A stretch of 64,000 nucleotides of DNA, from positions 142,291-206,290 of the IMG/VR virus record IMGVR_UViG_3300044551_000092; one strand, written 5' to 3'. Positions 18,758 to 57,919 of the stretch are shown piece by piece. The notes beneath the pieces were generated by a model. It saw only the letters and a list, made by a program, of their open reading frames with translations. It did no database searches and was not told the origin of the DNA. The stretch's first letter is position 1; every line of letters starts with the position of its first letter. This stretch comes from a virus (lineage: Duplodnaviria > Caudoviricetes). The translations under genes and the position numbers were made by a program.

Positions 18758-18988
18758 ATGGAATTGATTCAGGCATATCTAAAAAAAAGCAAAACGGCCA
18801 AAGATAAACGACTGATTTCGAAATTGAAAAATTCTACTAATTTCAGAGACTATGGTCAACACATGAAAAAGTTATATGATCTGCAAAAAATGACTCAAGC
18901 TCTTACTGTTAATCAGCGGTTTATGCATGAATTGCAAAATAATCCGGTCCTTGATTTTCTTGCGGCACTCGGTGAGACCAATGATTGA
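18758..18988 (+). CDS. Hypothetical protein with MELI-type N-terminal tag
   Basis: Starts MELIQAYLKK; RBS AAGGTG. Confidence 0.6.
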   Translation: MELIQAYLKKSKTAKDKRLISKLKNSTNFRDYGQHMKKLYDLQKMTQALTVNQRFMHELQNNPVLDFLAALGETND

Positions 18989-19736
18989 ACTGACGGCTGC
19001 GGATCTCTATCAAATTCGTCACTGCGGACTTCAGTATTTCTTAATGAAACACAGTCATAAGACCGCTGCAAAATCAAACATTGAACGGGTAAGGGAGATA
19101 GTTACAGCCTCGATTAACTATTATTATCAACAATTAGAGGCTGGACAAGTACTCTCTTTTAAAGAATTGCAATTTAAGTTTCTATCCATTTGGAATCGAA
19201 ACAAAGATCTTACCAATCCAGTAACAATTAAAACAAAGATTGAAGGCGCTACCCGGACACAATATAAAAAGACCGGTCTCCGGTTTCTGGATCATTTTTA
19301 TCGAAGGCAGGAGCTGCATGTCGATCAAATCATTGCCCGACAAGTTGGTTTTCGGGTGCCGATTGTTACCGGCCAGTTCTACATAAAAGGGAGTATCCCT
19401 TACATTACTGAAACGCCGAATGGAAAAATCTCCATTATCAACTATCGAATGGGCACTAAGAAATATGATACTTTCTGGCAAAAAACCGATCTGGACATTA
19501 CCTTGCAAGCTTATGCTTATCAATCTATTTTTAAAAAACAACCAGATAATATCTTTGTCCATCAGCTTTATTCTGACACGTATGCTTACTTGAAACGCGG
19601 CAAAACTGATTTCCGGCGAATGATTAAAATAATCAAAAACGTAAAACAGCTTATTGATACGGGGAACTTTTTTCCGAATGAGGGATTTTTATGTAGTAGC
19701 TGTCCAGTCAGAAGCCTCTGTGCTAACTGGCATTAG
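18981..19736 (+). CDS. PD-(D/E)XK (RecB/Cas4-like) nuclease-fold protein, catalytic motif degenerate
   Basis: N-terminal HC, GSIPYI..IINYR, LQAYAY, C-terminal CSSCPVRSLC. Confidence 0.65.
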   Translation: MIELTAADLYQIRHCGLQYFLMKHSHKTAAKSNIERVREIVTASINYYYQQLEAGQVLSFKELQFKFLSIWNRNKDLTNPVTIKTKIEGATRTQYKKTGLRFLDHFYRRQELHVDQIIARQVGFRVPIVTGQFYIKGSIPYITETPNGKISIINYRMGTKKYDTFWQKTDLDITLQAYAYQSIFKKQPDNIFVHQLYSDTYAYLKRGKTDFRRMIKIIKNVKQLIDTGNFFPNEGFLCSSCPVRSLCANWH

Positions 19737-19752
19737 AAAAGGAGAATGAGAA

Positions 19753-20214
19753 ATGAGGAAAGACTGGATTCATTATTTTATGGATATTGCAGAACTGACC
19801 AGCCAACGTGCTACTTGTCCAAGACTGCATGTTGGCTGTGTGATTGTTAAAGACCATCGGATAGTCAGTACCGGCTATAATGGAAGCATTCATGGGCAAC
19901 CGCACTGTGAGGACGCAGGATGCCTTCTGGACGAAGAGGGACACTGTATACGTACAATTCACGCTGAAATGAACGCAATTCTTCATGCGGAGCGTGAGAG
20001 CCTCATAGGAGCAACAGCATATGTTACCGACGAGCCGTGCGCAAACTGTATGAAAACACTAAATCAAGCTGGCATTAAAAATGTTATATATAAGAATGCT
20101 TATCCCAATCCCTATAATCAATATTTTATAGACGGTATGGCTGTTTTTAAACTTACAGATTTAGAGAAGAGGGAGTCTATTGGAACTCATTCGCAGTTAT
20201 CTGAACAGACTTGA
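19753..20214 (+). CDS. dCMP deaminase (ComEB-like)
   Basis: RATCPRLHVG, TGYNG, HAEMNA, PCANC zinc-deaminase motifs. Confidence 0.9.
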   Translation: MRKDWIHYFMDIAELTSQRATCPRLHVGCVIVKDHRIVSTGYNGSIHGQPHCEDAGCLLDEEGHCIRTIHAEMNAILHAERESLIGATAYVTDEPCANCMKTLNQAGIKNVIYKNAYPNPYNQYFIDGMAVFKLTDLEKRESIGTHSQLSEQT

Positions 20215-20617
20215 TTTACTTCAGATTCGCAAAGAACTTAGTTCTCAAATGAGCTTAGAAGGCATAACCCATCATATTTTTCTGAGAAGTCTTTTTGCAA
20301 CTGATAATAGTCACAATAGGCAGGAACCCACTTGTAAAATCGAAGAGTCCGTAATCAGGGACGATTTTAAACTTGTAAATGAACTGTTAAACAAAAAAAT
20401 TTATTTCTATTCAAGAAAACAATTACTTGGATTTTTAGCTGACCAGGAAAAAGCGCAAGCTAACAACTATGAGAATAGGCCGATCTTTACCTGTTTCCAA
20501 AAACTTATGCCTTGTAAATTGGTTAATATTATTTTTTGGGTTAACGGGTACAAGGATGATAAAACAATCGTTACGACCGGGAGTGCCGCGCATGGCATCC
20601 ATGATATCGTGAGGTGA
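20180..20617 (+). CDS. Hypothetical protein with MELI-type N-terminal tag
   Basis: TTG start, RBS GAGGGAG, MELIRSYLNR. Confidence 0.6.
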   Translation: MELIRSYLNRLDLLQIRKELSSQMSLEGITHHIFLRSLFATDNSHNRQEPTCKIEESVIRDDFKLVNELLNKKIYFYSRKQLLGFLADQEKAQANNYENRPIFTCFQKLMPCKLVNIIFWVNGYKDDKTIVTTGSAAHGIHDIVR

Positions 20618-20622
20618 TTAAA

Positions 20623-20955
20623 ATGGAGCTTATTCAGTACTATGTTAATCGAAATTACTTAATTAACACTCGAAATCAAATGCAAGAGAAGATAAAAAAG
20701 TTTATAACCGGGCATTGCCCCATTATTGAATACGATATTGGACTACTGACAGAAATTCTAAAGAATGATGATAAACGTATTCATTGGTCTACGAAACGAC
20801 TACAGCATTATCTAAAAGTTCAAGAAGCCATTCAGATCAAAAAAAATAAAAAAATTCGTCACCCTCTCACATATTTTCAGGATGGAGATCAAAAATCTAG
20901 TAAAAAAGAGTATCCAGTGATAATGATGGGGGGTAATCTCTATCGAGCTCATTAA
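20623..20955 (+). CDS. Hypothetical protein with MELI-type tag, paralogue of the upstream gene
   Basis: RBS GAGGTG then ATG 20623, MELIQYYVNR. Confidence 0.6.
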   Translation: MELIQYYVNRNYLINTRNQMQEKIKKFITGHCPIIEYDIGLLTEILKNDDKRIHWSTKRLQHYLKVQEAIQIKKNKKIRHPLTYFQDGDQKSSKKEYPVIMMGGNLYRAH

Positions 20956-21181
20956 TGCTTACTTACTAAGAAATGAAATTCTTTCTTGGGAAAGTATGTA
21001 TAATAATTTAAGTAAAAGATTGATTCTACAGCATTATTTAGAGCTATCCGCCTCTGGAATGGACGCTCTTTTTAATCATTATAAAATAGCTAAAGTATTA
21101 AAAGTTTGGGAAAACGAAACAACGATTTCCTGGTTTTATCAGCACTTGAAAATGATTTTACTCGAATATAAAGAGTCATGA
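20942..21181 (+). CDS. Hypothetical protein with MELI-type tag, apparent ATC start
   Basis: Track ORF 20996 is open 18 codons upstream to ATC GAG CTC ATT AAT GCT TAC TTA CTA AGA (IELINAYLLR), preceded by GGGGGG. Confidence 0.5.
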   Translation: MELINAYLLRNEILSWESMYNNLSKRLILQHYLELSASGMDALFNHYKIAKVLKVWENETTISWFYQHLKMILLEYKES

Positions 21182-21238
21182 TATAATAAAAGTTGGATAT
21201 AGAGAACCTCTGACTATTAGATTAGGAGGTTTTCTTTC

Positions 21239-22147
21239 ATGAAATCGTGTGTATTTAGCTTTGATGAAACGAAAGCAGAAGAAATCAAGCAGCTTGCACT
21301 TGGCCAAGATTATATTGATTGGGGTTTGCATACAATCATGGCGCCAGTGGCTTGGAAAACAACGAAAGGTAATGGAGTTAAAGTGGCAGTGCTTGATACC
21401 GGCGTGGATCAGACACATCCTGATCTGGAGGCCAACATTGCCGCAGTGGTTGATTTTACAGGATCACCTTCTGGCACAAATGATATTCAAGGCCATGGCA
21501 CCCATTGTGCTGGAATTATTGCAGGGACCGATACGGGAACCGGAATTGTCGGTGTCGCGCCACAGGTTAAATTATATTGTGGGAAAGTCCTTGGAGACAA
21601 TGGAACCGGATCAATAGAGAACATCGTCAAGGGGTTGCAGTGGGCAATACAGGAAAATGTCGATGTCATCAGTATGAGTCTCGGCACTACTCAACAACCT
21701 CCAGAAAAACTTCACGAATCCATTTTACAGGCTATTACAAAGGGCATTACCATTGTAGCGGCGACTGGGAATAATAATGGACCTGTAGGATGGCCGGCAC
21801 TTTACGATGAAGTCATTGCTGTGAGTGCTCTAAATGAAGACTATGATCGGGCAGATTTTTCAAATTATGGGATAAAAAATGAGATCATTGCCCCGGGTGT
21901 TGATATCCTATCGACATATAAAAATCACACCTATGCTCGCTTATCGGGGACATCGATGGCCACGCCAATTATTTCAGCCTCCGCCGCTTTGTATATTTCC
22001 CGCTTTAAAGAGCTGAATGATCAGCGGCCAAGCGTTCAACAAATTCACACGGCACTGGACCGGGCAACTGTTGATCTCGGCGGGGCAGGAAAAGATGAAT
22101 ACTATGGTTTTGGCCTCATAAATTTAGCTAAACTTTTTAAAAATTAA
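21239..22147 (+). CDS. Subtilisin-like S8 serine protease without signal peptide
   Basis: Catalytic triad motifs VAVLDTG, GHGTHCAG, SGTSMATP. Confidence 0.92.
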   Translation: MKSCVFSFDETKAEEIKQLALGQDYIDWGLHTIMAPVAWKTTKGNGVKVAVLDTGVDQTHPDLEANIAAVVDFTGSPSGTNDIQGHGTHCAGIIAGTDTGTGIVGVAPQVKLYCGKVLGDNGTGSIENIVKGLQWAIQENVDVISMSLGTTQQPPEKLHESILQAITKGITIVAATGNNNGPVGWPALYDEVIAVSALNEDYDRADFSNYGIKNEIIAPGVDILSTYKNHTYARLSGTSMATPIISASAALYISRFKELNDQRPSVQQIHTALDRATVDLGGAGKDEYYGFGLINLAKLFKN

Positions 22148-22198
22148 TTAATACTATAGTTTCAGGCAAATTGGCTTATATTTAGTAAAAATATGGTG

Positions 22199-22225
22199 AC
22201 AGAGGGAAATTACCTCTGTTTTTTT
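22199..22225 (+). terminator. Rho-independent terminator
   Basis: ACAGAGG-gaaatta-CCTCTGT followed by a T run. Confidence 0.7.
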
Positions 22226-22377
22226 CCTATTTATCGTATATAATGAATTTATGAAACGAAACACAATCCGAACACAAGAAAGTGTGGCGATAACATTGTC
22301 TAAAAAAATGATTCATCTCGTCGAGGATGCAGGATGGGAGATCGATAAAAAAGAATTAGAGGAGGCTGTCAAAACCA

Positions 22378-22833
22378 ATGCCAAGAACAAATATCGGGGC
22401 AAGAATAAAGAAGAAAAACAACAATCTCAAGATAATAACAAATAATAAACCTGTTCTAATTAAAACAGACAAAAGTAACGGATTAAGTCGAATAACGATG
22501 ACATTGGAGCCTGAAAAATTCGAAGAATTTAGTTCTGATTATCGCTTAACTTTCGATGAGTATTGCGATGCTATTGATAAGGCTGCTTCAGAAGAGTTTG
22601 ATGACTGGTCAGAACTTCGTCTTAGAGATCAAATTGCTATGAGTCAAGATGCACTCATTACGAAAACAATGATTAAATACGCGAAAACAGAAGAAAACCT
22701 AGACCTTTCTAAATTCAATGGCAACAACTTGGAATACATCAAGCGTTATGATACGGAAGGAACCTTTATCGGCGAGGCCATTCGACTAACGCTTTTATCC
22801 ATTGATCAAAATAATATACAGGTAACTAAATGA
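22378..22833 (+). CDS. Hypothetical protein
   Basis: RBS GAGGAGG; ATGA overlap with next gene. Confidence 0.55.
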   Translation: MPRTNIGARIKKKNNNLKIITNNKPVLIKTDKSNGLSRITMTLEPEKFEEFSSDYRLTFDEYCDAIDKAASEEFDDWSELRLRDQIAMSQDALITKTMIKYAKTEENLDLSKFNGNNLEYIKRYDTEGTFIGEAIRLTLLSIDQNNIQVTK

Positions 22834-23426
22834 CTCCATTAAAATTGCCGATGATGATGTATGGGAGATTCCGTCACGTTCGGGTAAAACATGACAAAGA
22901 AGGGCACACAGTCTATCTTAAAAATACCGCAGGAGAAATTCGTTTAACACCCAAAGGTAAAAAAATACCTGTTAAAGAAAAAGTATGGATCAACCATGTA
23001 CGTGGAAAAAGTAATGGAATCTATCCTTCGGTAAATCACATTTATAAGCGAATCGCTCATGGTAGACAGCAGTTAAACCAGCCGGCTCTTGATCTGTTAG
23101 AAACATGGAAAGCGCTTGCTTACGAATGGGCTCAAGAAACCCATTGGGATCATTCATATAATGGAAAAGTCGTTGTAGAATTAACAGCCTATTTTCCAAA
23201 TGACTTAAAAAAGAGAGACACTAATAACGTATTTAAACTATTAATGGATGCTCTGGAGGGACCAATCTATCCAAACGATGTTAATGCATTGCCGCGTGTC
23301 CTGGATTTTCACACAGTTGAAGAAGAAGAACCTTACTTCATTCTCAATATCTATCGTAAGGAGGATGAAGCTATTGTCATGCGTGAACGACACCGAAGCC
23401 TGTATAGCCCTTTATCAAAAGTATAA
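22830..23426 (+). CDS. rusA: RusA-family Holliday junction resolvase
   Basis: PSVN N-terminal motif and RDTNNVFKLLMDALEG..YPND signature. Confidence 0.75.
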   Translation: MTPLKLPMMMYGRFRHVRVKHDKEGHTVYLKNTAGEIRLTPKGKKIPVKEKVWINHVRGKSNGIYPSVNHIYKRIAHGRQQLNQPALDLLETWKALAYEWAQETHWDHSYNGKVVVELTAYFPNDLKKRDTNNVFKLLMDALEGPIYPNDVNALPRVLDFHTVEEEEPYFILNIYRKEDEAIVMRERHRSLYSPLSKV

Positions 23427-24156
23427 GCAATCACAGCCGCTTATAAATTGTTTTGAATTGATGTTTAAGAAATATACGATTCTTTTTAAGGATAAAATCA
23501 TTGATTTTCATGATTATAACCAACGCTTTTTTATCAGTTTTTATCTAAAAGAAAAAAAGGATCGATCAAATTTTAGAAAAGGCAGTTACCATGCTAAAGA
23601 ACTTGTCAGGAAAGCATACAGGGTATTGGATCTAATACGCCCAGCTTTTGAAGGGGTCGCAAATATCTATGGTGAATTAATTATTCCATTTCTACAATGC
23701 GCAGAACATTATAAAATCAAGTCATCTTTTCAAAACTATATCTACATTGCTTATAAATACTATTTAAAACGGCATATAGATCAGTTAATCAAAAGTTATT
23801 TATCTTTTCATACACGAAATCTTCCAATGGCTCAAGAAAATATTATCAAATTAGAGGAATCGCTTAAAATTTATCCTCAATCAACATTGCAATTAGATCT
23901 GGACAATGATCTTGCCTTAACTCATCCAGATTGGATCAATGGGAAACTAGCTCAATATCCGTTTAATCAACTAAATAGTCTGGAACGGCGAATTTTAGTA
24001 GAAACCTATACAAATACCGAGGCCAAGACAGATCGCGATATCGCAATAATTGTTGGCTATCACCCCAAATCAATCAGTCGAATTAGAAAAAAAGTAATCC
24101 ACAAAATTATTCATTATCTTCAGGAGGCCAAATTATGGCAACAGCAGCCGGCATAA
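23374..24156 (+). CDS. Phage sigma-70-like transcription factor
   Basis: Region-2-like SSFQNYIY and region-4 HTH LNSLERRILVETY..TDRDIAIIVGYHPKSISRIRKK; RBS AAGGAGG before TTG 23374. Confidence 0.65.
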   Translation: MSCVNDTEACIALYQKYKQSQPLINCFELMFKKYTILFKDKIIDFHDYNQRFFISFYLKEKKDRSNFRKGSYHAKELVRKAYRVLDLIRPAFEGVANIYGELIIPFLQCAEHYKIKSSFQNYIYIAYKYYLKRHIDQLIKSYLSFHTRNLPMAQENIIKLEESLKIYPQSTLQLDLDNDLALTHPDWINGKLAQYPFNQLNSLERRILVETYTNTEAKTDRDIAIIVGYHPKSISRIRKKVIHKIIHYLQEAKLWQQQPA

Positions 24157-24359
24157 TGACTATCAGTAGAGATTCAGAGGATTTACTCTTCACTGTCCAT
24201 AGATTTGAGAAACTAATGGAGATTGAGCCCCACGATTCATTTGTCAAGATTGATACCGTGTGCTATCCACACCGATTATTTGAAAAAATTATCCTAATGA
24301 ATAAAAGACAAATTAATGAAGTCTTAGATAATAAGGCCCTATGCACTGAAGCTCAATAA
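24135..24359 (+). CDS. Hypothetical protein
   Basis: RBS AGGAGG. Confidence 0.5.
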   Translation: MATAAGIMTISRDSEDLLFTVHRFEKLMEIEPHDSFVKIDTVCYPHRLFEKIILMNKRQINEVLDNKALCTEAQ

Positions 24360-24482
24360 ACCAACTAAATTATTTATATATAAATTCATAATATTTTGCC
24401 TATTATCTATTGTTTTTAAGAAAATATTAGATATAATAAAAGTAGTAGTAACACAGATGTAACACAAAAATGGGGCAATTTC

Positions 24483-25325
24483 ATGGGGACATTTGACGAT
24501 CAGATTAACCATTATTTGATCGAAAAACAATATCACAGTACCAGGCCGATGCGGAATATTATTCATCCATCTTGCATTGGAATGTGTCAGCGACGTATTG
24601 TATTCGACATGATGATGGTTCCAAAAGAAATGCAAAAAGTACAGGTCCTAAAAATTTTCGAGAACGGTACCCGGATGCATACCTGCTATCAAACATGGTT
24701 AGAAAAAATCGGCATTTTGGTTGAAGCAGAACGTAAACTCGATAAAGGCGCCATTTCAGGACATTGTGATGCGATCGTCAAGACGTATCCATTCACATGT
24801 CCAAAGGGACAAGAGACCATTATTGAATTTAAAAGTGCTGCAAATGATAGCTTTAATTGGATGCAGAAGAAGAAAAAGCCGAAAACAGAGCATTATCTAC
24901 AAATTATGTTCTACATGTATCTTAGCGGCATTCATCAAGGGATTATTTTTGTAGAAAATAAAGATTCACAAGAGACATTAGAATTTCCAATAACGTATCG
25001 TCCTGAAACCGGAAAGCAACTTTATGATCGGGCCAATTACTTAATCGACTTAGCCAAAAAGCGAAAGCTTCCGGATCGTCCTCAGAAATATGTACCCAGC
25101 TGTTATAAGTGTTCTATCTGTGATTATGCTTTTTATTGTCACAATCAAAGCATCAAGCGAAACGGAGAGGTTCGCTACCCCATACCTTTCCGTTTCGGGA
25201 CTCCCGCTTACATTCATGCTCTTGAAATCATCGATGCCGTTAATAATCATAAGCCCATCCCAGATGTCATCAAGGGAAACACTTTAGGAGACTTATACAG
25301 CGAAACGGCAGCAATGAATCAATAA
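24483..25325 (+). CDS. Cas4-like PD-(D/E)XK exonuclease
   Basis: HPS..GMC.R, G...H, SGHCDA, IIEFKS, Q..FY, C..C..C..C. Confidence 0.8.
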   Translation: MGTFDDQINHYLIEKQYHSTRPMRNIIHPSCIGMCQRRIVFDMMMVPKEMQKVQVLKIFENGTRMHTCYQTWLEKIGILVEAERKLDKGAISGHCDAIVKTYPFTCPKGQETIIEFKSAANDSFNWMQKKKKPKTEHYLQIMFYMYLSGIHQGIIFVENKDSQETLEFPITYRPETGKQLYDRANYLIDLAKKRKLPDRPQKYVPSCYKCSICDYAFYCHNQSIKRNGEVRYPIPFRFGTPAYIHALEIIDAVNNHKPIPDVIKGNTLGDLYSETAAMNQ

Positions 25326-25619: not shown

Positions 25620-28600
25620 ATGGAGGGGGATCAAGAACCTATCGTCCATTTACACGTTCACAGCGAAAACAGCTTATTGGACGGCTTATCAAAAATAGAT
25701 GAACTGATTACACGAGCAAAAGAAATCGGCAGCCCCGCATTAGCATTAACCGACCATGGAACGTGTGCTGGAATTCCAAGCTTTATTCGTAGTTGTAAAA
25801 AAGCTGGAATTAAACCCATTCCTGGCTGCGAAGCCTATATGACAAAGAATCGTCTCGTTAAAAGCGAACAGCTTTCAGACATGCGAACTAATCTTTGTTT
25901 GAAATATCATATTTTAAACACAAGTAAAAAGCCTGATATGAAACGTTTAGGGAAGTTTCTTCGCGGGATGTTGAAAAACCCATCCACGTTTAAAGAACAG
26001 GCTGATGATTTATTAAAAGACTACTATATGCAAAATACGGTAGATCTTTTCAGCATTTTTGACGCACAACCAACGAAGCAACAAATGCAGGCTAATTTCC
26101 TGCACGACATAAATAACTACCTGGACTTTGAGACCTATCATTTGCTATTAATCCCTATCGATAATGCAGGCCTGGCTGACCTGTACGAAATTGTATCGGA
26201 TGCACACATTAATGGTTTTTACGGCAAGCCACGTACGGATCTGCAAATTATACAAGAAAAAGGTTTAGGCAAACACATGATAGCAACGTCAACTTGTCTG
26301 GGTGGTTATTTTTCTCATTTGTGCTTGGCAGGGCGAATTGAACAAGCTAAGAAATATATTAAAAAATGCAAAAATATTTTTTACGGTTATTATCTAGAAA
26401 AACAGGCTTCGCAACTTCCAAAACAAATTCAATTAAATGCAATTATAGATCAACTGGCAGTTGAAACACATACGCCAAAAATCGTAACTTGCGATGTGCA
26501 CTTTGCTCGAAAAGAAGATCATGATACACAAGATGCCTTAATTTGCATGTCAATCAACAAATGCCTGAACGACCCCGATCGCTATCATTACGCTCCGGAT
26601 TACTATTTAAAAACGGCCGGCGAGATTCGCCAACAAGTGAATGACGACGAAGCAATCGCCAATACACTTGAAATTGCCAAACAAGTAAATGTGTCTGAGC
26701 CTAAAAAGCCACTGTTTCCAAAAATGCAGGTAGCGAAGGGGGCCACAGCAGAAGCATTACTTCGGCATCAAGCCTGGCAGAATCTTTTTCAAATGTGCCT
26801 CAAGCATTCAGAGTGGAATATAGAAAGCTATTCTCAACGATTAGCATATGAGCTGAATGTGATCTGTAAGATGCAATTTGCTGACTATTTCTTAATTGAG
26901 TCAGACATGATCAATGCGGCAAATGATGCTGGTTATCTAACGGGGCCGGGACGTGGATCGGGTGCCGGCTCACTGACTTGCTATGTAATGGGGATTACTA
27001 AAGTTGATCCACTCAAATATGGGTTGCTGTTTGAACGATTTCTAAATCCTGAACGGGCCGGGTATCCTGACATAGATGTCGATTACAGCTACTCAGCTGC
27101 TCGATGGACGCAAAATTATCTAAAAAAAACATATGGAAATGATCGAGTCGCTCAAATTGGAACGACGGGGACGATGGCAGCACGTCAAGTTATTCGCGCC
27201 GTAGGGAAAGTGCTTGGTTATGATCTGGACACACAGGATCGATTTGCCAAGGCGATTCCCGACGCCCCACATACCAAACTTGCTGGCGCCTACGAGACTG
27301 AAGAAACGGTGAGAGCGATGGCCAGCCGTTATCCTAAGTGGTGGGACCTGGCAAAAAAGTTAGAGGGCCACGCAAAGAGCCTCGGCGTCCATGCTTCAGG
27401 AATTGTTCTATCACCAGTAAAAATCGACCGTGTCGTTCCGCTTAGGCGGGATAAAGAGGGGCTTGAAACAACCCAATTTGATATGGAACATATTGAAGAT
27501 TACTTAGTCAAATTTGATTTGCTTAAATTAGATACGTTGGATCTCATCCAAAACACGTTAAACAATGCCGGAATAAACGGAAAAATTAACATTAATGAAC
27601 TGGATTTAGAAGATCCACGTGTTTATAAAGAAATCTATCAAGCCAATAATCTAGCTGGTATCTTTCAATGTGAATCTAAACTGTTTCAAGATATTATACG
27701 TGTTATTCAACCAACAAACTTCAATGATTTAAGCGTACTTGTTGCTTTGGGGCGACCAGGGCCGCTAGATTTTGTTGAATCCTATGCTAATCGAAAACAT
27801 CGAAAGGAAGAAGAACAATATTCTTTTCCCGAATTAAAACCTGTACTTAAAGAAACCTACGGGATTTTAGTTTATCAGGAACAGGTAATGGCAATGTCTC
27901 GTATTTTAGGCGGATTGACGCTTGGCCAAAGTGACATGATTCGAAAGGGCATCGGGAAGAAAATACCGGATCTTCTGAACCGTTGGCTTGATCTCATGAT
28001 CTACGGCAGTAAAAAGTATAAGATGCAACATCAACAGCTGGTGAAGCAATTTCCAAAAAAGGATATGATCCCTTTAAGTGAAGAAGGCAAGCCTTCATTC
28101 TGGGTCGATTATGATTATAAAAATGTCCCCGAAGTACAGGGGGCTGTCAACCGGGGCTTTAATCTGGAAAAACTGCTTGTCTTAAAAGAGCAATGGATTA
28201 AGTTCGGCAATTATTGTTTTAATAAAAGCCATAGCGTGTGTTACGGTATGATCTCATTTATCACGGCTTGGCTAAAATGTTACTATCCGGTAGAATTTAT
28301 GGCCGCACTGCTCACTCAATCCGAAAATAAAAAAGACAAGAAGAAGCAACCAAAAAACGTGGTTTATATTCAAGAATGTGAAAAAATGGGTATTCTTGTT
28401 CTACCTCCTAACATTAAACTATCAGAACGAAAATGGACGCCAATTCACAAAGACGGGAAAAGCTATATTCTCATGGGGCTTTCCGGTATAGCCGGCATTA
28501 AAGAAGAAACGGTTGAAGAAATCAAAAGCTATGATCTGTCTAAAGTTAAGACGTTTGAACAGTTCCTTTGGTGTATCAACCAATATAAAACTGAACACAA

Positions 28601-29101: not shown

Positions 29102-29470
29102 ATGGAACTGATCAGCGCCTATCTTATGCGTAAAAAAAGCCGTACTGCTGTATTTCATATGACAGTTAATGGAAAAAACATTATCAGTCGTTTAGTGGAA
29201 ATCCAAATCATGCCGACAGTATCTCCTATGTATGGAATAGGTGACATCAATCCAATCGCAAATTCACTAAATGCCTATGAATATGAGTTTAAATTAATAG
29301 ACATTGACAAGACAGATTTGGTACTTATTACACAAGCTTATCAAAATTTAGAACTTGTAGACGTATTCTTAAACTTACCGAAGAGAGGAAAAGAAAAGTC
29401 ACTCAAAGGCACTATCACAGATATATCTAGTTTAGATAATGACGAAATTATCTTAACCCTTCGAGTGTAA
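29102..29470 (+). CDS. Hypothetical protein with MELI-type N-terminal tag
   Basis: RBS AGGAGG, MELISAYLMR. Confidence 0.6.
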   Translation: MELISAYLMRKKSRTAVFHMTVNGKNIISRLVEIQIMPTVSPMYGIGDINPIANSLNAYEYEFKLIDIDKTDLVLITQAYQNLELVDVFLNLPKRGKEKSLKGTITDISSLDNDEIILTLRV

Positions 29471-30643: not shown

Positions 30644-30676
30644 AATAAAGAGGGGACGCGTTCCCCTTATTTTTTT
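30644..30676 (+). terminator. Rho-independent terminator
   Basis: AGGGGA-cgcgt-TCCCCT hairpin followed by a T-rich tail. Confidence 0.65.
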
Positions 30677-48409: not shown

Positions 48410-48820
48410 TTAAAATGAGAAAGATAACTGATTTTCATCAATTTCTGAATTAAAGACGCCAATCAAACGACGATTTTTAACAACATAAAGCTGTTTACCT
48501 AAACAATACTCGTCATCATCAAGATTAACTGTATCGCCAATTAAGAGAGAACACAGTGAACGAACCTGCTGTGCGTTAATTCTGGGTTGTTCAATCAATT
48601 GTGCTTCACAACAATTCACTTCAACTTTGCACGTTGCGGCTACATAGAGATGGTATTTTGCACCGCACAAAGGGCAAACAATATCTTCTTTTTCCCGATC
48701 GTCCTCAAGATCTTTAGCCAATTCAATCGTTTGATCGTAGATATTAGTATGAATGCGATGTCCACACGTGCAAAGCAAATATCCATCCGGTAGAGTATCT
48801 TTATAATCCCGTTTATTCAT
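48410..48820 (-). CDS. Zinc-ribbon protein with C-terminal clamp-binding-like motif
   Basis: CTCGH..CPLC; ends QLSFSF. Confidence 0.5.
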   Translation of the reverse strand: MNKRDYKDTLPDGYLLCTCGHRIHTNIYDQTIELAKDLEDDREKEDIVCPLCGAKYHLYVAATCKVEVNCCEAQLIEQPRINAQQVRSLCSLLIGDTVNLDDDEYCLGKQLYVVKNRRLIGVFNSEIDENQLSFSF

Positions 48821-49280
48821 GGTTTTCACCTGCGTTCAACCAATTTTGAAAATCCTGAGAATACTCGAATATTGGCAAACTCGAAAGATAAGCCGACGTT
48901 TCTGCTGGCGACAGTTCTGTTTCATAAATACCTTCCATGACTTCACTTATACCTCGTTGATCAAGTAACTCATATAAAAGAGAATAGATCTCTTCCGTGT
49001 AATCTGATTCTTCCACCCCGTCTGGAACATGATAACCATAACCGTCTTGTAGAGTTCTTTCTGCTTCCCAAAAATCGGACTCGACAATGTACACGGCAAT
49101 TGTACCTTCATTAGGCGAATGGCCGAAGGCAAATATAAAATGAAGATTCATTTCTAAATTTGCTAGTATTTGATTATTAGCTGTTGATTTGGCACTAATA
49201 CCTGTCTCATTTTTTGATTTTTCTTCTTCGGCTTTTTTTAGCCATTCTAAACGTTCTAAATAAGGCTTCAATAATTCCAT
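48813..49280 (-). CDS. Acidic hypothetical protein with MELI-type N-terminal tag
   Basis: MELLKPYLER; G-rich RBS. Confidence 0.6.
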   Translation of the reverse strand: MELLKPYLERLEWLKKAEEEKSKNETGISAKSTANNQILANLEMNLHFIFAFGHSPNEGTIAVYIVESDFWEAERTLQDGYGYHVPDGVEESDYTEEIYSLLYELLDQRGISEVMEGIYETELSPAETSAYLSSLPIFEYSQDFQNWLNAGENHE

Positions 49281-50716: not shown

Positions 50717-51982
50717 TTATTGTTTCGTAATGTCGAGCTGTTGATCTGCTTGAAAATCTTTTATTTCCACGTCTTGTTTTAAACCCGGGATCTGCACGGG
50801 AAGAATTAAATCTAAATTACGATGATCGACACCGGCTTCTGCTAAAATAAATGGTTTAAGTTGACCAACAAAACCAATGTTAATCATGCTCTGTGCAGGA
50901 TAATGCTCTAAAGCTTCACGAATATAATTTGCGTTAACGCCCATCTGGAGATCAGCGCCGGCTGCTTGTTCACTGAGCGCCAAATCTTCGACAAACTCAC
51001 TTTTCTTCCCTTTCTCATCCGGAGAAATCATGCGGAGCTGACGATCTTCCGGTTTAATTTTGAGTATAGAGGGGCGTTCCTCGTTCATCAAAAGTGAACG
51101 CTTAACAAGGCCTAATAGCTGGCCGGCATTAGCAACAATCTTTGTTGGAAAAGTATTAATCTGAATCAGGCGGTCAGTATTGGGATATTTGCCATCCAAC
51201 AATCGACTAACGATAGTTAAATTGCCCAAATTAAAAGAGGCAAATTTACTGGCAGCGTTAATTGTAACCTTATCTACGGTCGCCAGCTGTTTCATTAGTT
51301 CTTTAATACTGATCGCGGGTACAACGACATCAATAGCCGCTGCTTCTTCTTTAAATTCATAATAAGCTTGAGCCAAGCGATAGCGGTTTGTTGCAACAAG
51401 CGTTAAGCCTTTGCCCTGTATCACATGATGCACACCGGCTAAAATCGGTTTCGATTCATCGCTGGCAGTGGCAAACACCGTCCGCTGATACATCGAAGTC
51501 AACACGTCGGAGGGCAGTGTTACGGAAACGGCATCCTTAATGTCCTGTTCCTTGGGAAATTCAATACCATCAAGAATAGATAATTTAAACAAAGTGCTGC
51601 CCGATTTAATCGAAGCGATTCCGTCTTTCACTGTAATCTTTGTTTTGCTACGCGGAAGATTCCGAACAATATTAGCAAAAGAACGGTCCTGAAAAACAAA
51701 CTCACTTTCGTGGCCATAAAGAATTTCAAAATTATCTTTTTTAGGAACAACCAGAGTGGTTCCAAAATCACTATTTTCAGCACGAAGAATTAACTTATCT
51801 TTTGTGATTTTAAAATAAATACCGGTTAAAATAGCTTTCGGCGACTGTTTAGCTGCAGTTCGCGCGACACGACTTACACTGTTGGATAAGGTTTCAGTTT
51901 TTATTTCAAATTGAACATCTGGTGCTAACTCTTCATCGACTTTCTTTTCAATATCCAATACTTCTGCTTCGTTTACAGCCAT
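50717..51982 (-). CDS. dnaN: DNA polymerase III beta sliding clamp
   Basis: ILTGI, EFP, TVFA...DESKPILAGV, VATNRYRLA, SRLLDGKYP, N..Y..EAL, LILPV. Confidence 0.9.
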   Translation of the reverse strand: MAVNEAEVLDIEKKVDEELAPDVQFEIKTETLSNSVSRVARTAAKQSPKAILTGIYFKITKDKLILRAENSDFGTTLVVPKKDNFEILYGHESEFVFQDRSFANIVRNLPRSKTKITVKDGIASIKSGSTLFKLSILDGIEFPKEQDIKDAVSVTLPSDVLTSMYQRTVFATASDESKPILAGVHHVIQGKGLTLVATNRYRLAQAYYEFKEEAAAIDVVVPAISIKELMKQLATVDKVTINAASKFASFNLGNLTIVSRLLDGKYPNTDRLIQINTFPTKIVANAGQLLGLVKRSLLMNEERPSILKIKPEDRQLRMISPDEKGKKSEFVEDLALSEQAAGADLQMGVNANYIREALEHYPAQSMINIGFVGQLKPFILAEAGVDHRNLDLILPVQIPGLKQDVEIKDFQADQQLDITKQ

Positions 51983-52000: not shown

Positions 52001-52180
52001 TCAAATATTTTTAAAGCGTTTGGTTTTTCGCCTTTTCTCAATTGTATGAAATAGTTTTGATAAACCAAATTCAAATCTAAAGAAAAACTGATGATTACGA
52101 TGAACCATTTTGAAACTGAATCCGAACAGAAGGAAAGATAGCAAAAGAAAACTAAAAAAAATCATAAACCAAAAAGTCAT
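52001..52180 (-). CDS. Small single-TM protein (59 aa, below track cutoff)
   Basis: RBS GGAGGAG; MTFWFMIFFSFLLLSFLLFGFSF followed by a basic tail. Confidence 0.55.
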   Translation of the reverse strand: MTFWFMIFFSFLLLSFLLFGFSFKMVHRNHQFFFRFEFGLSKLFHTIEKRRKTKRFKNI

Positions 52181-52240
52181 GGTGCTCCTCCATTTTTCTT
52201 TTTCATACTGAAATAATGAAATTTAATTTTGTTATCTTTT

Positions 52241-52582
52241 TTAAGCATCCGCTTCACTCACAGCTTTTCTAGCGTAAAAAAGCAATATCTCATAATCATG
52301 CGATGTGATAAGAAATTTTCCCTCCTTCGGATAATATTTATTCGTGATTTTTTTAATTTCTTCCCTCGGCGACAACGGATTGATAATTTTCTTCCTGCTA
52401 TAGGCCGCTCTAATAATATCGATAAACGTTTCTTCGCTAAGCAGATAATCTTCATCTGGCGACATTTTTCCAATTGCTTTGTAAATTCTGTAAACTGGGC
52501 TAAAACCGTCGACTCTAATATTCAAATTATCAATAACCTTTTGTTTAACTGCTTTTTTCAGCACATATATGTCTTCATTCAT
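52241..52582 (-). CDS. Hypothetical protein
   Basis: RBS AAGGGAG. Confidence 0.55.
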   Translation of the reverse strand: MNEDIYVLKKAVKQKVIDNLNIRVDGFSPVYRIYKAIGKMSPDEDYLLSEETFIDIIRAAYSRKKIINPLSPREEIKKITNKYYPKEGKFLITSHDYEILLFYARKAVSEADA

Positions 52583-52626
52583 TGCTCTTGCTCCCTTTCC
52601 AGCTTATCGTTCTCTCTCCTCAGATT

Positions 52627-52893
52627 TTAATCAAAGTAATCTTCTTTATAGCTCAAATCGTTTTGTAACTGTTTGATTTTTTGAAGCACTTCTTTATTTT
52701 TCGTATGATGTAACCAATCTACTAGTTTATCTAAAACTATATCTGCCGGAACTTCACCAAGATAGACACTCATAACACCAACGGCTTGTTTATCTTTATA
52801 GATTTCATTCATACGAAAATGCATAGATCCAGCCTTAACTTTTTTACAGGTATCGTATATCGCTTTAAAACTACTTTTTTCGTCTTCGGTCAT
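52627..52893 (-). CDS. Hypothetical protein
   Basis: RBS AAGGAG. Confidence 0.55.
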   Translation of the reverse strand: MTEDEKSSFKAIYDTCKKVKAGSMHFRMNEIYKDKQAVGVMSVYLGEVPADIVLDKLVDWLHHTKNKEVLQKIKQLQNDLSYKEDYFD

Positions 52894-52905
52894 ATTTTTA
52901 GCTCC

Positions 52906-55900
52906 TTAGGCAAACAAGGTTAACTGTCCTTCGACAGCACGATCTTTCTTTTTTAAACCCTTATTAAAGGCTTTAGCATCTTCGACAACTGAAATAACTT
53001 CTTCAAAGTGAGCTAGATATTCAGCCAGTGCTTCAGAAGAAATATTACCAGCAGCGGCTTCTTTCTTAATATCTTCCATCAGTCCATTCGCGATCGCGCG
53101 GACTTTCTCAATACCCCCTTCAATTGGGTTCATGTCATAGTCGTCATAGGTATTGTATTTAGCGCTTTGCAGCTCGGCATAGGATTGATTTAATTTTTGA
53201 AACCGGTCATGAATTGTATTGACGTTGTCCAGTTTGCCTTCATTCATCAAATTCTTAGCCAGCGCCATCATACTGTCTCCGCTGTCGGCCATTGTTCGAA
53301 GTCCTTCTTCACTGAACTTCCCCTGCATGGCCATTGCCGCGTCAATCTTCTGAGCGATATTATTCAGTACATCCTGCTGAATCGTATGTGAATAAGCTAA
53401 CGTATAAACTTTAACTGGTTTTGTTTGTTTAATCCGCCAGCTTCGACGTGAAGACTGCATATAGTTAAACACTGAGTAATCCTGCTGATAATAAATGATG
53501 TTCGGAAAATCTAGCAAATCTAGGCCAACCTTCACCAAGCGTGCATTGGTAATCAATACATCCCAGTTATGGGTTTTCATCATTTGTTTAAGCCATTTTT
53601 CACGACCTTTAGAATTGACAGGCATTCGAATCCCATCGTAGCTCCCAGAAGAACGTAAGATGCCGACATTGTATCCCATACCCTTCAAACGATCATATAG
53701 ATACGTATCCATTGACGTATAAGCTCGATTGCCGGAATAACGAACATATACAAGTGATTTCCGTCCCTGATCTAGTTCATCATCAATGATATTCACGAGT
53801 TCCAAAAACTTAGTCGGCACAAAAGATTCGGGAAATTTCTGTGGATGAGCCAGAATCTGCTCAACCCCATCCTCGTCATATGTTTTTACAACGTCCATAT
53901 TAAATGGTGCATCACAGTACTGATACATCGTATTAATGTAATTTGAAACAAAACTTATACCGGATTGAAACATGGTGCTTCGTAAATATCCCTTCATTAC
54001 ACTGTTCAAATGGTCATAAGCTTCTTTCTGTTGCGAATCCATATCAACCAATACGGGAATCTCCTGATAAGGTGGAAGTGCATATCCTAAATCAGAAAGC
54101 TCCAAGAACACACAGTTGCTCATAAGATAAGTTGGAAACAGATGTGGTGATAGTCCAGGCTTCTCATTAGATGCAATTTGTTTTTGCACTGATTGATTAG
54201 CACTGTTGTATTTAATTTCATAAACCCCGTAACGGTTAATAAAACTGCCTTTATCTTCATACTGAATGCCTTCACGATGCAATTTCTTTGAATCTAAACG
54301 GGCAAGTAAGTAAAAGATGTCGCTAGACATACCACCCATCAAAGTGCCTGTTAAAAGAATCTGCTTTTCGGTTGCATTGATCAGCTGACCAAATGCTTTG
54401 CCAATTTCAGAGTCGCCGCTTTTATATTCGTGGACTTCGTCAGCAATTAAATATTTAAAAAATCCGCGACGTAACTTTTTATTAATCACCCACGCCGGAG
54501 AAATTTTACGCTTTAAGGAGTCAGGTGGCAGCTGTTCCGGCTGCCACAAAACATAACCGCATTCTTGAATAGGCTTGTTTTTATCTTTCACTTCAGACTT
54601 TGGAAGTTCTTTTGTAAGCACATTACGAGTGCAGACCCAATTCGTACTAACTTTAATTTTTTCTTTCCATTTGCTTCCGACTCTTTGTTCAAAAAAGTGA
54701 GACCCAGCAATCCGTTTCTTTTTTTCATGTAACGGGTTGCCACAATGTGGGCAATAGAAACCCGTATCAGACGCCTCATACATTGTACGGATATCCGGAT
54801 GGTCATCAGTGCCCCAATTTACAAAGCCTTTCTTAAAGCGGACACGTGGGCGTTTTGGCAATGGTTTACCGTTTTTAATCGCGTCGGCTCGTGCAAGTCG
54901 ATAATTAGTCAATATTTCATGAGCCGTTCCACTATTTTGTCTCCAGTCTTTAATGGGGGACAATTTATAATGATATTTAGCCAGGTCACTGTTCATCACG
55001 TAATACTCAATCTCAGTAGGATGATATGGTTTCTGGCGTAGTGCGAGTGCATCGCGCCAACTTTTAATTTCGTAGACTTTCACATTCGGTATTCGCTCTT
55101 TAATTTCACGTTTCCATTTTTCAACCATGATGCTTGGTGAGTAGACTAGCACGCGATAAGGGCCCGCATGATCGGAATGTTTGCGTAAGGATTCAGTAAT
55201 ATATGGCGCACTTTCTCCAATCGCCGTTTTTCCCGTACCCATTTCTCCCACGACAAAGCAGTAGTGATCTTCTAATAAAGTTTTAGAAATTCCCATTACT
55301 GTATCGGCCTGTGGAGGAAACAGTCCTGTTATTCCTTGTTGATTTGCAGTTATATTCAACTGTTTAAAAGCCGGACTATGTTCGTCTTGTTCAGGATCAA
55401 ATCGTGATCTTGTATTTTCTTTAATTCGTTCTCCAAGAGCGCCAGCAAAATGCTCCAAATAGGTAGATAGATCCGTGCAATTCTCTAATATGCCCTGTGT
55501 CCGGCCATCCTCCATCATTGCAAAATCTAAATCGTATGATTTCACGCCTTCAGATATAATCTGCTCAAATTGTCTTTCCGTGAGACACAATAAGCCAGCT
55601 TTTAGGTCATAATGATTAGCAAAAGATTGTACGATCAACGGACGATAATAGTGATGCTCAATCAACGCGTCAACAATATAATCTTTCCAATCTTTAAGCA
55701 TAGGTGTATTGTATTTTTCCCATAACACCTTGTAAATTTGATCACGGATATTACCATCCCAAGCAAGAATCAGATCGCCAAGATCATCGGGAACTTTCTT
55801 TACAGAAGGATCCGTTGCGTTATTTTCTTCCATCCAATGATCGCATTGTTTCTGAAATTCCCGTCGAACGTTGATATCCTGCTGAATGTTTTTATGAACA

Positions 55901-56223
55901 TAAAGACATTCTTCAATCTCATCAATTTTAGATGAGAAACTTAAATACTTCTTGGTTTTCTTAAAATATAAGTTCTTACGTGAATAACGGACATTGTTTT
56001 CGTATTTAATTGGACCAAGAGACCCCGTGTGCCCTTGCTGTATTAATAAATCAGCGTAGGCAATTTGTGATGGCTTGGCTAATAAATTACAGAGATAAAC
56101 ATCATTCGTTGATGAAGTGACAAGCAAATCGATATAAGTAGTGGCCGGTTGATTGCGACCGTTATAAATATGGACATTATGCAGCTTGTCATAATAATCC
56201 GTCGTTGTTTCCAAGTCCATCAT
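52906..56223 (-). CDS. SF2 (SNF2-like) helicase with zinc-finger insert
   Basis: GEMGTGKT, IADEVHE, LLTGT, GLDL, QSSRRSWRIKQ; CPHC insert; ends QLTLFA. Confidence 0.85.
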   Translation of the reverse strand: MMDLETTTDYYDKLHNVHIYNGRNQPATTYIDLLVTSSTNDVYLCNLLAKPSQIAYADLLIQQGHTGSLGPIKYENNVRYSRKNLYFKKTKKYLSFSSKIDEIEECLYVHKNIQQDINVRREFQKQCDHWMEENNATDPSVKKVPDDLGDLILAWDGNIRDQIYKVLWEKYNTPMLKDWKDYIVDALIEHHYYRPLIVQSFANHYDLKAGLLCLTERQFEQIISEGVKSYDLDFAMMEDGRTQGILENCTDLSTYLEHFAGALGERIKENTRSRFDPEQDEHSPAFKQLNITANQQGITGLFPPQADTVMGISKTLLEDHYCFVVGEMGTGKTAIGESAPYITESLRKHSDHAGPYRVLVYSPSIMVEKWKREIKERIPNVKVYEIKSWRDALALRQKPYHPTEIEYYVMNSDLAKYHYKLSPIKDWRQNSGTAHEILTNYRLARADAIKNGKPLPKRPRVRFKKGFVNWGTDDHPDIRTMYEASDTGFYCPHCGNPLHEKKKRIAGSHFFEQRVGSKWKEKIKVSTNWVCTRNVLTKELPKSEVKDKNKPIQECGYVLWQPEQLPPDSLKRKISPAWVINKKLRRGFFKYLIADEVHEYKSGDSEIGKAFGQLINATEKQILLTGTLMGGMSSDIFYLLARLDSKKLHREGIQYEDKGSFINRYGVYEIKYNSANQSVQKQIASNEKPGLSPHLFPTYLMSNCVFLELSDLGYALPPYQEIPVLVDMDSQQKEAYDHLNSVMKGYLRSTMFQSGISFVSNYINTMYQYCDAPFNMDVVKTYDEDGVEQILAHPQKFPESFVPTKFLELVNIIDDELDQGRKSLVYVRYSGNRAYTSMDTYLYDRLKGMGYNVGILRSSGSYDGIRMPVNSKGREKWLKQMMKTHNWDVLITNARLVKVGLDLLDFPNIIYYQQDYSVFNYMQSSRRSWRIKQTKPVKVYTLAYSHTIQQDVLNNIAQKIDAAMAMQGKFSEEGLRTMADSGDSMMALAKNLMNEGKLDNVNTIHDRFQKLNQSYAELQSAKYNTYDDYDMNPIEGGIEKVRAIANGLMEDIKKEAAAGNISSEALAEYLAHFEEVISVVEDAKAFNKGLKKKDRAVEGQLTLFA

Positions 56224-56252
56224 CCTTTCTAATACTTGTGTTACATAATGTG

Positions 56253-57500
56253 TTACATTATTTGATGAAAATCACCATTATGATCTAAATACTTAATGTT
56301 TATATCAAAATATTCCCGCTCTTTCATGCGAGTCAATCCGTTTTCAGTATAGGTTGAGCGACGTTTTAATTTAATGGCACTCCCTTTAACTAAATGCTGA
56401 TCCGGTCCGCTACCGATATAGCCATTCAAATTTCCGCTTGTTAACAGTAGCATGATGTGTCCTTTATGCAGAGGCGTCGGTGAAACAAAATCATTTTCTG
56501 ATAGTGATCGATCATAATCTTCTCTAAACTTTTTGATTAAAGTAGATTTATGACTGGATTCTAAAATTTCTTCTGGTGACAAAGGGCCTACACGAAAATA
56601 CTCGACCAGATCTTCTTTGGTTTCCGGGACTTTATAGAGCGGCTTAGCCTGAATCGTGAGTGGCTCAATATCTTCGGGATGCTTAAATTTAGTCTCAGCC
56701 AGTAAAATACCGCCATCTCGATCATTGATGCGTTTAATACGTTTTCGAGCAATAATTATACAGCGCCCATAGGAATAGTAATCGTCATGATCTTCCAATC
56801 GCAAAATCTTAATATCTGTAAAGTTGTTATACAGCTTAATGCTTATTTTCTGATCGATTAATTCCTTTGGCGTCAGCATAATGAGCAATCCGCCGGGAAT
56901 CAAACGTTCGATTGCGTTTGCTAACAAAAAATCATCGTCCCGTAGGGTTCCAAGCCGTCGCTCCTGTTCTCTAGATGCGCGCCTGAATAAGATTTTCTGA
57001 TGCTCGATCGCTTTTGCTAACCGTGCGTCCGCTTTCTTCTTTTGAGCTGCCAGCTGTTCTTTAGAAAACCCTTCTTTGGATAAATCAAGTTGATTTCCAA
57101 CTAGTGCTTTAGCTTCTGCAATTTTCTCCTTTGCAAGCCTTTCATAGTCCGGTTCCTGATAAGCACTAATATTTTCGTAGACTTCTTCATAAAGACTATT
57201 GCTGATCTCGGCGTCAACGACAACAACCGAGAATGCTTCTTTAGAAATCCGAGACTGATCAAGATAAAATGACTTGCAAACCTTTTTAAAATATTCTGCA
57301 GCTTGATTAGCAGAGTAATCATTTTGTTCAATACCATATAGAGATACCTGTTCCGGAGGCACCCTCTTAGTCAATCTGCGAAGAAAATTACCGTCAGAAC
57401 AACGATAATCTAACAGATTAAAATGCTTTTCATGGGGAAATTCCAGATAGGTACGAAGAACTTCCGTACAAAAGCTATTTAATTTATCATTAATTTCCAA
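56253..57500 (-). CDS. Methyltransferase-fold protein (DUF6094-like) with degenerate motifs
   Basis: LLDYRCSDG (motif I-like), LYGIE, L.PGGLLI, C-terminal PLHKGH..LLLTSG.LNG..HLVKG; no NPPY. Confidence 0.65.
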   Translation of the reverse strand: MEINDKLNSFCTEVLRTYLEFPHEKHFNLLDYRCSDGNFLRRLTKRVPPEQVSLYGIEQNDYSANQAAEYFKKVCKSFYLDQSRISKEAFSVVVVDAEISNSLYEEVYENISAYQEPDYERLAKEKIAEAKALVGNQLDLSKEGFSKEQLAAQKKKADARLAKAIEHQKILFRRASREQERRLGTLRDDDFLLANAIERLIPGGLLIMLTPKELIDQKISIKLYNNFTDIKILRLEDHDDYYSYGRCIIIARKRIKRINDRDGGILLAETKFKHPEDIEPLTIQAKPLYKVPETKEDLVEYFRVGPLSPEEILESSHKSTLIKKFREDYDRSLSENDFVSPTPLHKGHIMLLLTSGNLNGYIGSGPDQHLVKGSAIKLKRRSTYTENGLTRMKEREYFDINIKYLDHNGDFHQIM

Positions 57501-57514
57501 AGTCCATCACCTTC

Positions 57515-57919
57515 TCAATCGTAAAATAGTGCATGAGATAAATCAGAATAGACACGTTGAAACAAACGAATATCAACGCCGGCAGAAACATAACCAGAGA
57601 CGTTTTTTAGGGATTTGCCATGATAGCTTTTTGTATCTATTGAAACGCCTTCCGCATTAGTTGCACACTTAAAAATAACATATGGAACAGGCTGGTTAAG
57701 GTAAAAATGAATAGAGTCAAAGTCACGTGTAAAACGTATAATTACACGATAATCTTGATCATCTATCTGATAGTGTTTTGAATAGATTGCAAATTTAGTT
57801 GTACTTCTTTGGACCTCATAAAAGTCTAAAACTTTTAGCTTCATCTCCGTCAAATTCATATCTATACCCTTTAATCGAAAGGGTGGATGACGGTAGAGAT
57901 AGGCTTGTATCAATTCCAT
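57515..57919 (-). CDS. Hypothetical protein with MELI-type N-terminal tag
   Basis: MELIQAYLYR; RBS GGTG; own extended -10 upstream. Confidence 0.6.
   Translation of the reverse strand: MELIQAYLYRHPPFRLKGIDMNLTEMKLKVLDFYEVQRSTTKFAIYSKHYQIDDQDYRVIIRFTRDFDSIHFYLNQPVPYVIFKCATNAEGVSIDTKSYHGKSLKNVSGYVSAGVDIRLFQRVYSDLSHALFYD

Follow-up and report, generated by a model that had tools for sequence, protein, structure and literature searches.

The stretch of viral DNA examined here raises the question of why small, scattered and otherwise dissimilar genes should encode proteins that begin with almost the same few residues, and what might read this shared beginning. The stretch, referred to below as the window, comprises 64,000 nucleotides and is the final 64 kb of the 206,290-bp IMG/VR virus record IMGVR_UViG_3300044551_000092 (Duplodnaviria; Caudoviricetes), which CheckV rates as complete. 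A first-pass annotation of the window had described a ten-residue N-terminal tag, M-E-L-[IL]-x-x-Y-[LV]-x-[RK], on seven proteins, and had proposed that it is an address label that either loads diverse cargo into the virion or docks it on one common partner. All seven N-termini were present at the positions and on the strands that had been given for them. They are listed here in window coordinates, together with the gene of an S8 protease that recurs throughout the analysis.

T05: 18758 to 18988, + strand; 76 residues, MELIQAYLKK; the first gene past a terminator-like hairpin at 18721-18739
T06: 20180 to 20617, + strand; 145 residues, TTG start, (M)ELIRSYLNR; overlaps the 3' end of the dCMP deaminase gene
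T07: 20623 to 20955, + strand; 110 residues, MELIQYYVNR
T08: 20942 to 21181, + strand; 79 residues from ATC 20942, IELINAYLLR; directly upstream of the S8 protease gene
S8 protease (context gene): 21239 to 22147, + strand; intracellular-type, subtilisin-like, with its Asp/His/Ser triad intact
T09: 29102 to 29470, + strand; 122 residues, MELISAYLMR; starts 2 nt past the DnaE stop codon, upstream of the endolysin gene
T10: 48813 to 49280, - strand; 155 residues, acidic, MELLKPYLER; downstream of the phage DnaN clamp gene
T11: 57515 to 57919, - strand; 134 residues, MELIQAYLYR; flanked by the primase block on one side and by the methyltransferase-like and SNF2 genes on the other

The ATC start of T08 was inferred solely from the tag and from a G-rich ribosome-binding site, GGGGGGT, located 7 nt upstream. 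It would represent a rare non-canonical start, or else one that was disabled recently; an in-frame ATG at 20996 would yield an untagged protein of 61 residues.

When the window was translated in six frames, the pattern EL[ILVM]..Y[LVIM].[RK] matched the seven tagged open reading frames (ORFs) only, and each match was an ORF start behind a ribosome-binding site. A scan of the whole genome, for which a crude gene call gave ~235 genes, returned nine strict matches, 9/9 at ORF starts. Two looser N-terminal matches, MELIHVYL (TTG start, 36047-) and MVELISQYL (61383+), were also found. The part of the genome outside the window contributes four tagged ORFs, with first codons at 36047-, 50924-, 52182- and 61383+ in genome coordinates, bringing the total to 11 of ~235 genes. 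A relaxed N-terminal pattern matched the real genome 10 times, whereas 20 triplet shuffles yielded 0-1 matches. In the full replicon the motif is thus enriched well above the level in shuffled sequence.

Five related IMG/VR records, with GC contents of 35-50%, were retrieved by alignment of DnaE (~50% identity). Tagged ORF starts, counted with the relaxed pattern, numbered 12 in G001, 8 in G003, 16 in G005, 3 in G004 and 3 in G002, the last of which is a provirus that is 61% complete. In G005, ~10 tagged genes of 50-113 residues form a tandem run at 105,960-110,126. The profile of 54 instances from the six genomes revealed a conserved core of eight residues, M-E-L-[IVA]-x-x-Y-[LIM]. After M1, Glu occupies position 2 in 52/54 instances and Leu position 3 in 51/54, and Tyr7 is present in all 54. 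Position 4 is Ile (25), Val (17), Ala (8) or Thr (3), position 8 is Leu (38), Ile (11) or Met (4), and positions 5 and 6 hold small or polar residues. The length of ten residues first assigned to the tag has to be reduced to this core, as the Arg or Lys at position 10, found in 9/11 proteins of this genome, is not kept in the relatives.

The coding of the core was then compared with the codon usage of the genome. Position 3 uses all six Leu codons and position 7 both Tyr codons, each in the proportions usual for the genome (p=0.11 and p=0.70, respectively), and Glu codon 2 shows a modest excess of GAG (p=0.001). Start codons may be ATG, GTG or TTG, and the upstream DNA and ribosome-binding sites of the tagged genes are neither conserved nor alignable. 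As synonymous codons vary freely, selection acts on the peptide, and it is selection on the peptide itself that keeps the tag. The first-pass annotation had noted that codons for the conserved E, L and I differ, as do starts and ribosome-binding sites, and had taken the tag to be conserved at the peptide level and not as a DNA repeat. Codon usage and the unconserved upstream DNA confirmed both points.

Behind the tag, the proteins have little in common. BLASTP among the 11 tagged bodies of this genome detected no similarity, and the 43 tagged proteins from the six genomes fell into at least 34 BLAST clusters. One of them, T04, possesses a Pfam Tad2-like domain (residues 68-134, E 2e-11), and the tagged proteins of the relatives include DnaJ-type and Lar-type zinc fingers and a terminase-like P-loop ATPase. 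A dUTPase is tagged in G003 (L052) and in a B. cereus-group element (L263), with the enzyme domain beginning at residue 36 (E 1e-24 to 1e-28). When the families of T11 and T04 were compared with hhalign, only the first 11 columns aligned. BLASTP, Pfam and hhalign therefore agree that the bodies are unrelated and do not form one full-length family. The exception that had been made for a 'tandem group' at 20.2-21.2 kb could not be retained, since no significant BLASTP similarity was found among its members.

We also considered whether homologues of the bodies lack the tag, a check suggested along with the original proposal. T11 is a clade-core gene whose orthologues, at ~30-35% identity, all start with the tag or with a mild variant (MDLATAYL). 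A profile search of 1.84 billion representatives assembled 42 clusters of this family, nearly all of which start with MEL[IVL]xxY[LIM]Y. Homologues that had seemed untagged carry variants such as MTELAEAYI, MELANRYL and LNELASIYL, or MEG[KR]ELVTCYL, which is conserved in two genomes. The tag is thus retained among orthologues of ~30% identity, and the outcome is mixed only in that one homologue, that of the P-loop ATPase in G004, is truly without it. The tag behaves as a portable label on unrelated, mostly small, non-structural proteins.

Concerning the distribution of the tag, the S8 protein of G005 is letter-identical to a protein named plasmid-borne in Paenibacillus rhizovicinus, and contigs of 200-245 kb from B. 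velezensis, the B. cereus group, Alicyclobacillus, Virgibacillus and Paenibacillus encode S8 proteins of 55-64% identity. In the B. cereus-group and B. velezensis loci, gene order is syntenic with that of the window and the same slots are tagged. No match to the relaxed pattern was present in Moorella phage MTATph1 and Bacillus phage KLEB27-3 (393 kb together), and no tag was found in ten more distant DnaE-bearing viral records or in 80 loci around distant S8 genes (641 kb of metagenomic sequence, with S8 relatives of <=44% identity). These more distant, untagged phages share the DnaE, capsid and S8 protease genes with the clade. The tag is restricted to one clade of ~200-kb Bacillota phage-plasmids. 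The relatives were reached through alignments only: T09 or DnaE as single queries gave no match among viral contigs, a word-indexed protein search with T11 returned only T11 itself, and tblastn of T04 against phages gave no match. The phage collection searched contained no cultured member of the clade.

The structure of the tag was examined in AlphaFold2 models. In T11, the alpha/beta body was predicted with a mean predicted local distance difference test (pLDDT) score of 84, and residues 1-10 with ~52, residues 3-10 being helical. Fold and atlas searches with T11 gave no convincing match, leaving its body without a solved-fold counterpart. In T04 (mean pLDDT 72.5), a helix at residues 2-9 is followed by a small N-terminal domain and then by the Tad2-like domain. 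The tag is predicted to be a short amphipathic helix on a flexible N-terminal arm, one face of which M1, L3/I4 and Y7/L8 would line.

As to the surroundings of the tagged genes, the structural block of the genome occupies ~66-153 kb on the + strand, with replication and accessory genes on both flanks. The window contains genes for PD-(D/E)XK nucleases, dCMP deaminase, the S8 protease, a RusA/RuvC-like protein, DnaE and endolysin, as well as the DnaN clamp, an SNF2 helicase, a methyltransferase-like protein, DnaG primase and UvrD helicase; four tagged genes are located in the left arm, away from this replication block. In every genome examined a tagged gene follows DnaE, in the slot of T09. The gene just upstream of S8 is tagged in 7/7 clade genomes or loci having S8, and among these seven no homology of the upstream genes to each other could be detected. 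T05-T08 and S8 lie together between terminator-like sites at 18721-18739 and 22198-22220. G004 is without S8 and the adjacent tagged array, which are absent together as one block. It has three tags elsewhere, the fewest among the complete genomes. A Cdc48/VAT-like AAA+ ATPase, the DnaN clamp and SNF2 helicases occur in all tag-bearing genomes and not in the untagged relatives. Several head and tail proteins and many small genes have the same phylogenetic profile, as do the 446-residue gene after the portal gene, discussed below, and a 406-residue gene located between terminase and portal, and with so many genes sharing it, profiling singles out no reader of the tag.

Since so many small proteins that are otherwise unrelated begin with the same eight-residue peptide, this peptide probably serves as a label for addressing or docking. 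We consider there to be a good probability that the tag binds a partner at all, and docking of all tagged proteins on one common reader, the simplest mechanism, is most likely. Among specific models for this reader we place first, tentatively and by analogy with phage T4, the prohead. The tag would bind the assembling prohead core, and the tagged proteins would enter the capsid in this way and reach the next host together with the DNA. Fast-evolving accessory proteins are numerous among them, and one has an anti-defence-type domain. The gene after the portal gene, encoding 446 residues, is a candidate prohead protease-scaffold: it has a coiled coil, a head maturation protease (PHROG E 6.5e-6) and a protease/capsid fusion model (E 7e-8) both match it weakly, and Pfam S78 was not found in it.

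Several results weigh against capsid loading. Tagged genes are confined to replication and accessory regions and never lie in the structural block, and no head protein has the motif. Across the clade no residue past position 8 is conserved in the 54 instances, so that the tag is followed by no conserved protease cleavage residue. The dUTPase and a clade-core gene of the replication module are not obvious capsid cargo, and the constant tagged neighbours of DnaE and S8 suggest replication or proteolysis no less than the head. The tag helix of T04 is predicted as confidently as the remainder of the N-terminal domain and may be packed there. Taking into account the missing cleavage motif, the presence of the tag on a dUTPase and the tight association with DnaE and S8, we regard the capsid model as possible, and as more probably wrong than right. 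The address label proposed in the first-pass annotation is therefore upheld as a portable label conserved across the clade, and is weakened where it specified encapsidation. Docking on one common partner, its other form, is as well supported as encapsidation.

If the prohead is not the reader, a protease or unfoldase might be, namely the S8 subtilase, the Cdc48/VAT-like AAA+ ATPase or a host Clp-type machine, for which the tag would be a recognition or processing signal. The tag might be cut off, for example after Tyr7, or might mark proteins for timed removal. The invariably tagged genes upstream of S8, with no detectable homology to one another, the enclosure of T05-T08 and S8 between two terminator-like sites, and the joint absence of S8 and the adjacent array from G004, with its few tags, would all fit such a relationship. 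With an aliphatic I/V/A at position 4, followed three residues later by the invariant Tyr, the tag agrees with the known P4/P1 preference of subtilisins. In addition, the AAA+ ATPase is clade-specific and highly conserved, and a short N-terminal peptide regulates the intracellular subtilisins of Bacillus (PMC6220982). The tag, however, has neither the Pro nor the spacing of the LIPY/F motif of that peptide, three well-formed tags persist in G004 without an S8 gene, and S8-bearing relatives outside the clade are untagged. Regarding the unfoldase, an alignment scan showed near-full-length homologues of 36-40% identity to be common in Treponema, Armatimonadota, Planctomycetota and other metagenome-assembled genomes, and the family is therefore not a tag-specific invention. 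Co-folding of T11 with the AAA+ ATPase and S8 gave a score of 0.00; as controls were not run, this counts neither way. On balance a protease or unfoldase signal seems unlikely, and its fuller version, a sorting code by which S8 and/or the Cdc48-like AAA+ ATPase would direct the timed processing, unfolding or destruction of ~5% of all phage proteins, is improbable.

A hub of replication or nucleotide metabolism (the DnaN clamp, DnaE, SSB or a dNTP-synthesis complex) could also be what the tag docks on, much as UNG2 or DNA ligase I is brought to PCNA by an N-terminal PIP box. The replication module is rich in tagged genes; there, T11 lies between the primase and SNF2 genes and T10 near the DnaN gene, and the tagged gene after DnaE is a constant feature. 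A bona fide dUTPase bears the tag on a 35-residue arm, and the sequence of the phage clamp is clade-specific. In its spacing, with an aliphatic residue at 4, an aromatic one at 7 and a hydrophobic one at 8, the tag equals the PIP box Q-x-x-[LIM]-x-x-[FY]-[FY]. The clamp can nevertheless be aligned over its full length with B. subtilis DnaN (4TR6), and the alignment takes in the C-terminal LILPV pocket motif. A ligand of the QL[SD]LF type would be expected for a clamp of the DnaN type, and the tag is unlike it. Tandem tiny zinc-ribbon proteins and a Tad2-like protein would be odd replisome clients, and the four left-arm genes lie beyond the replication block of the window, so that we give this hub little credence. 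The partner might instead be a conserved protein of the host, for instance RNA polymerase, a chaperone or a protease adaptor, and the tagged proteins would then be host-takeover effectors on one hub. Strict conservation of the motif across Bacillus, Paenibacillus, Alicyclobacillus and Virgibacillus hosts fits a conserved target, and many tagged proteins are small, orphan and fast-evolving, but the dUTPase and the clade-core replication gene are hardly takeover effectors, and we likewise judge this doubtful. That the tag is no separate signal at all, only the remnant of one diverged paralogue family or an intramolecular cap or self-association element, is very unlikely. Some tagged genes are in tandem and could be duplicates, and the helix of T04 matches the adjoining domain in confidence; against this, the bodies are as different as a dUTPase, a Tad2-like protein, a P-loop ATPase and zinc ribbons, profile-profile comparison finds only the tag in common, and no part of the T11 model is predicted with lower confidence than the tag. 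A single paralogous family is largely refuted by the domain assignments, the BLASTP clusters and hhalign. Least credible of all is an element acting at the level of nucleic acid, whether a translation-initiation context, a promoter-proximal element or a cassette recombination handle, with the peptide as a by-product. Its constant place at gene 5' ends and the slight GAG excess at codon 2 would agree with this, but the six Leu and two Tyr codons occur in genome-typical proportions, start codons, ribosome-binding sites and upstream DNA differ, and the same peptide is found in genomes of 35% to 50% GC. A DNA repeat, recombination handle or translation signal is largely refuted by codon usage and the unconserved upstream DNA.

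A number of further observations were made on the genes mentioned above. In G004 (L068), 3,949-5,106 corresponds to window positions 19753-22833; the block lacking there, S8 with the tagged genes upstream of it, would lie after the dCMP deaminase gene and before the conserved gene that comes next. The trimeric-type dUTPase with its 35-residue tagged arm (MELTQPYL, MELTIEYL) is encoded at L263:19260-19832, at L052:9164-9676 and, in G002, at ~3419 (-). The Cdc48/VAT-like AAA+ ATPase (L001:17403-19052, - strand) is a single-module protein of 549 residues with ~60% identity among clade members, and the DnaN clamp (window 50717-51982, - strand; TIGR00663, E 8.5e-58) has an extra C-terminal tail of ~24 residues and, among relatives whose DnaE is ~50% identical, an identity of only 27-37%. 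Terminator-like hairpins on the + strand at 18721-18739, 22198-22220 and 30650-30668 mark off two units, one running from T05 through S8 and the other from the RusA-like gene through DnaE, T09 and endolysin. As the endolysin gene shares a terminator-bounded unit with DnaE, the two would be co-transcribed. A scan for sigma-70 promoters found sites no more frequent than in shuffles.

DnaE itself contains a tag-like stretch, MDLIPSYINRKHG in the relatives and LDFVESYANRKH here (window 27600-27650; G001 131853, G004 9707, G005 187036). Because this stretch, MDLIPSYINRK in the relatives, lies within the polymerase sequence itself, we judged the likeness to be coincidental. DnaE matches in two pieces with an insert in G004 (L068:6984-11017) and G003 (142,212-148,450). 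In the cultured Bacillus phages KLEB27-3 and WH1 it is annotated as two or three coding sequences, and an HNH endonuclease gene lies between the KLEB27-3 pieces. At L001:28-3800 the genome has a CRISPR-like array in which a 32-nt repeat (GTCGCACTCTTTATGAGTGCGTGGATTGAAAT) occurs ~60 times, with a spacing of 65-68 nt. The spacers are mostly unique, one occurring three times in succession, and transposase-like ORFs follow at 4.1-5.4 kb. The array may be the element's own, or the record end may be host flank.

If the tag is an address label, it defines at once the client list of one machine in widespread large phage-plasmids of Bacillota, with ~10-20 clients per genome; among these would be a dUTPase and a Tad2-like protein, along with dozens of orphan proteins. 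Were capsid loading to prove correct, the 'internal protein' strategy of T4 would extend to a Gram-positive lineage unrelated to it, numerous anti-defence proteins would be marked out as candidates for injection, and a ready tag for packaging foreign proteins would be at hand. If a protease, an unfoldase or the replisome reads the tag, it would represent a new kind of viral short linear motif network. To our knowledge, a virus-encoded tag-directed proteostasis system has no described counterpart in phages. As elements of this clade are carried by culturable hosts (B. velezensis, the B. cereus group and, on a plasmid, Paenibacillus rhizovicinus), the question is directly testable.

Three known systems come closest to the tag. 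In the intracellular subtilisins of Bacillus, a short N-terminal peptide, [LVI]-[IFLV]-P-[YFH], lies across the active site and regulates the enzyme (PMC6220982). Like the tag it is short, N-terminal, composed of Leu, Ile and aromatic residues and related to an intracellular S8 protease, the tagged genes lying directly upstream of one. The subtilisin peptide, however, is part of the protease itself and has an essential Pro and one-residue spacing (PMC6220982), whereas the tag is found on other proteins, has two-residue spacing and persists without S8. The tag motif has no Pro, and the phage S8 itself has a short, untagged N-terminus. PIP boxes and other clamp-interacting peptides are, as the tag would be, short terminal docking motifs on many unrelated DNA-metabolism proteins, and share the 4/7/8 spacing. 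They differ in that position 1 of the tag is Met and not Gln, and in that the phage clamp is of the canonical DnaN type, for which the known ligands are of a different appearance; the tag is neither Q-x-x-[LIM]-x-x-[FY]-[FY] nor QL[SD]LF.

The capsid targeting sequence (CTS) of T4, MKTYQEFIAE, is the third. PMC8442874 and PMC3012670, citing Mullaney and Black 1996, describe an N-terminal decapeptide on diverse internal proteins that is cleaved by the prohead protease. An N-terminal peptide on unrelated proteins is also what the 54 instances in six genomes represent. The CTS and the tag each comprise no more than ~10 residues at the extreme N-terminus of diverse, fast-evolving and partly anti-defence proteins, and both are amphipathic, with hydrophobic residues at 1, 4, 7 and 8 (PMC8442874). 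The T4 precedent invoked by the first-pass annotation thus holds for the hydrophobic spacing and not for the cleavage site, as no conserved equivalent of the L/I-x-E motif of T4 follows the tag; the sequences also differ. The tagged clade consists of non-T4, HK97-type phage-plasmids of Bacillota and has more clients, up to 16 or more per genome, a dUTPase and one replication-module core gene among them. The hypervariable arrays of tiny tagged genes, such as that at 105,960-110,126 in G005, resemble the internal-protein locus of T4.

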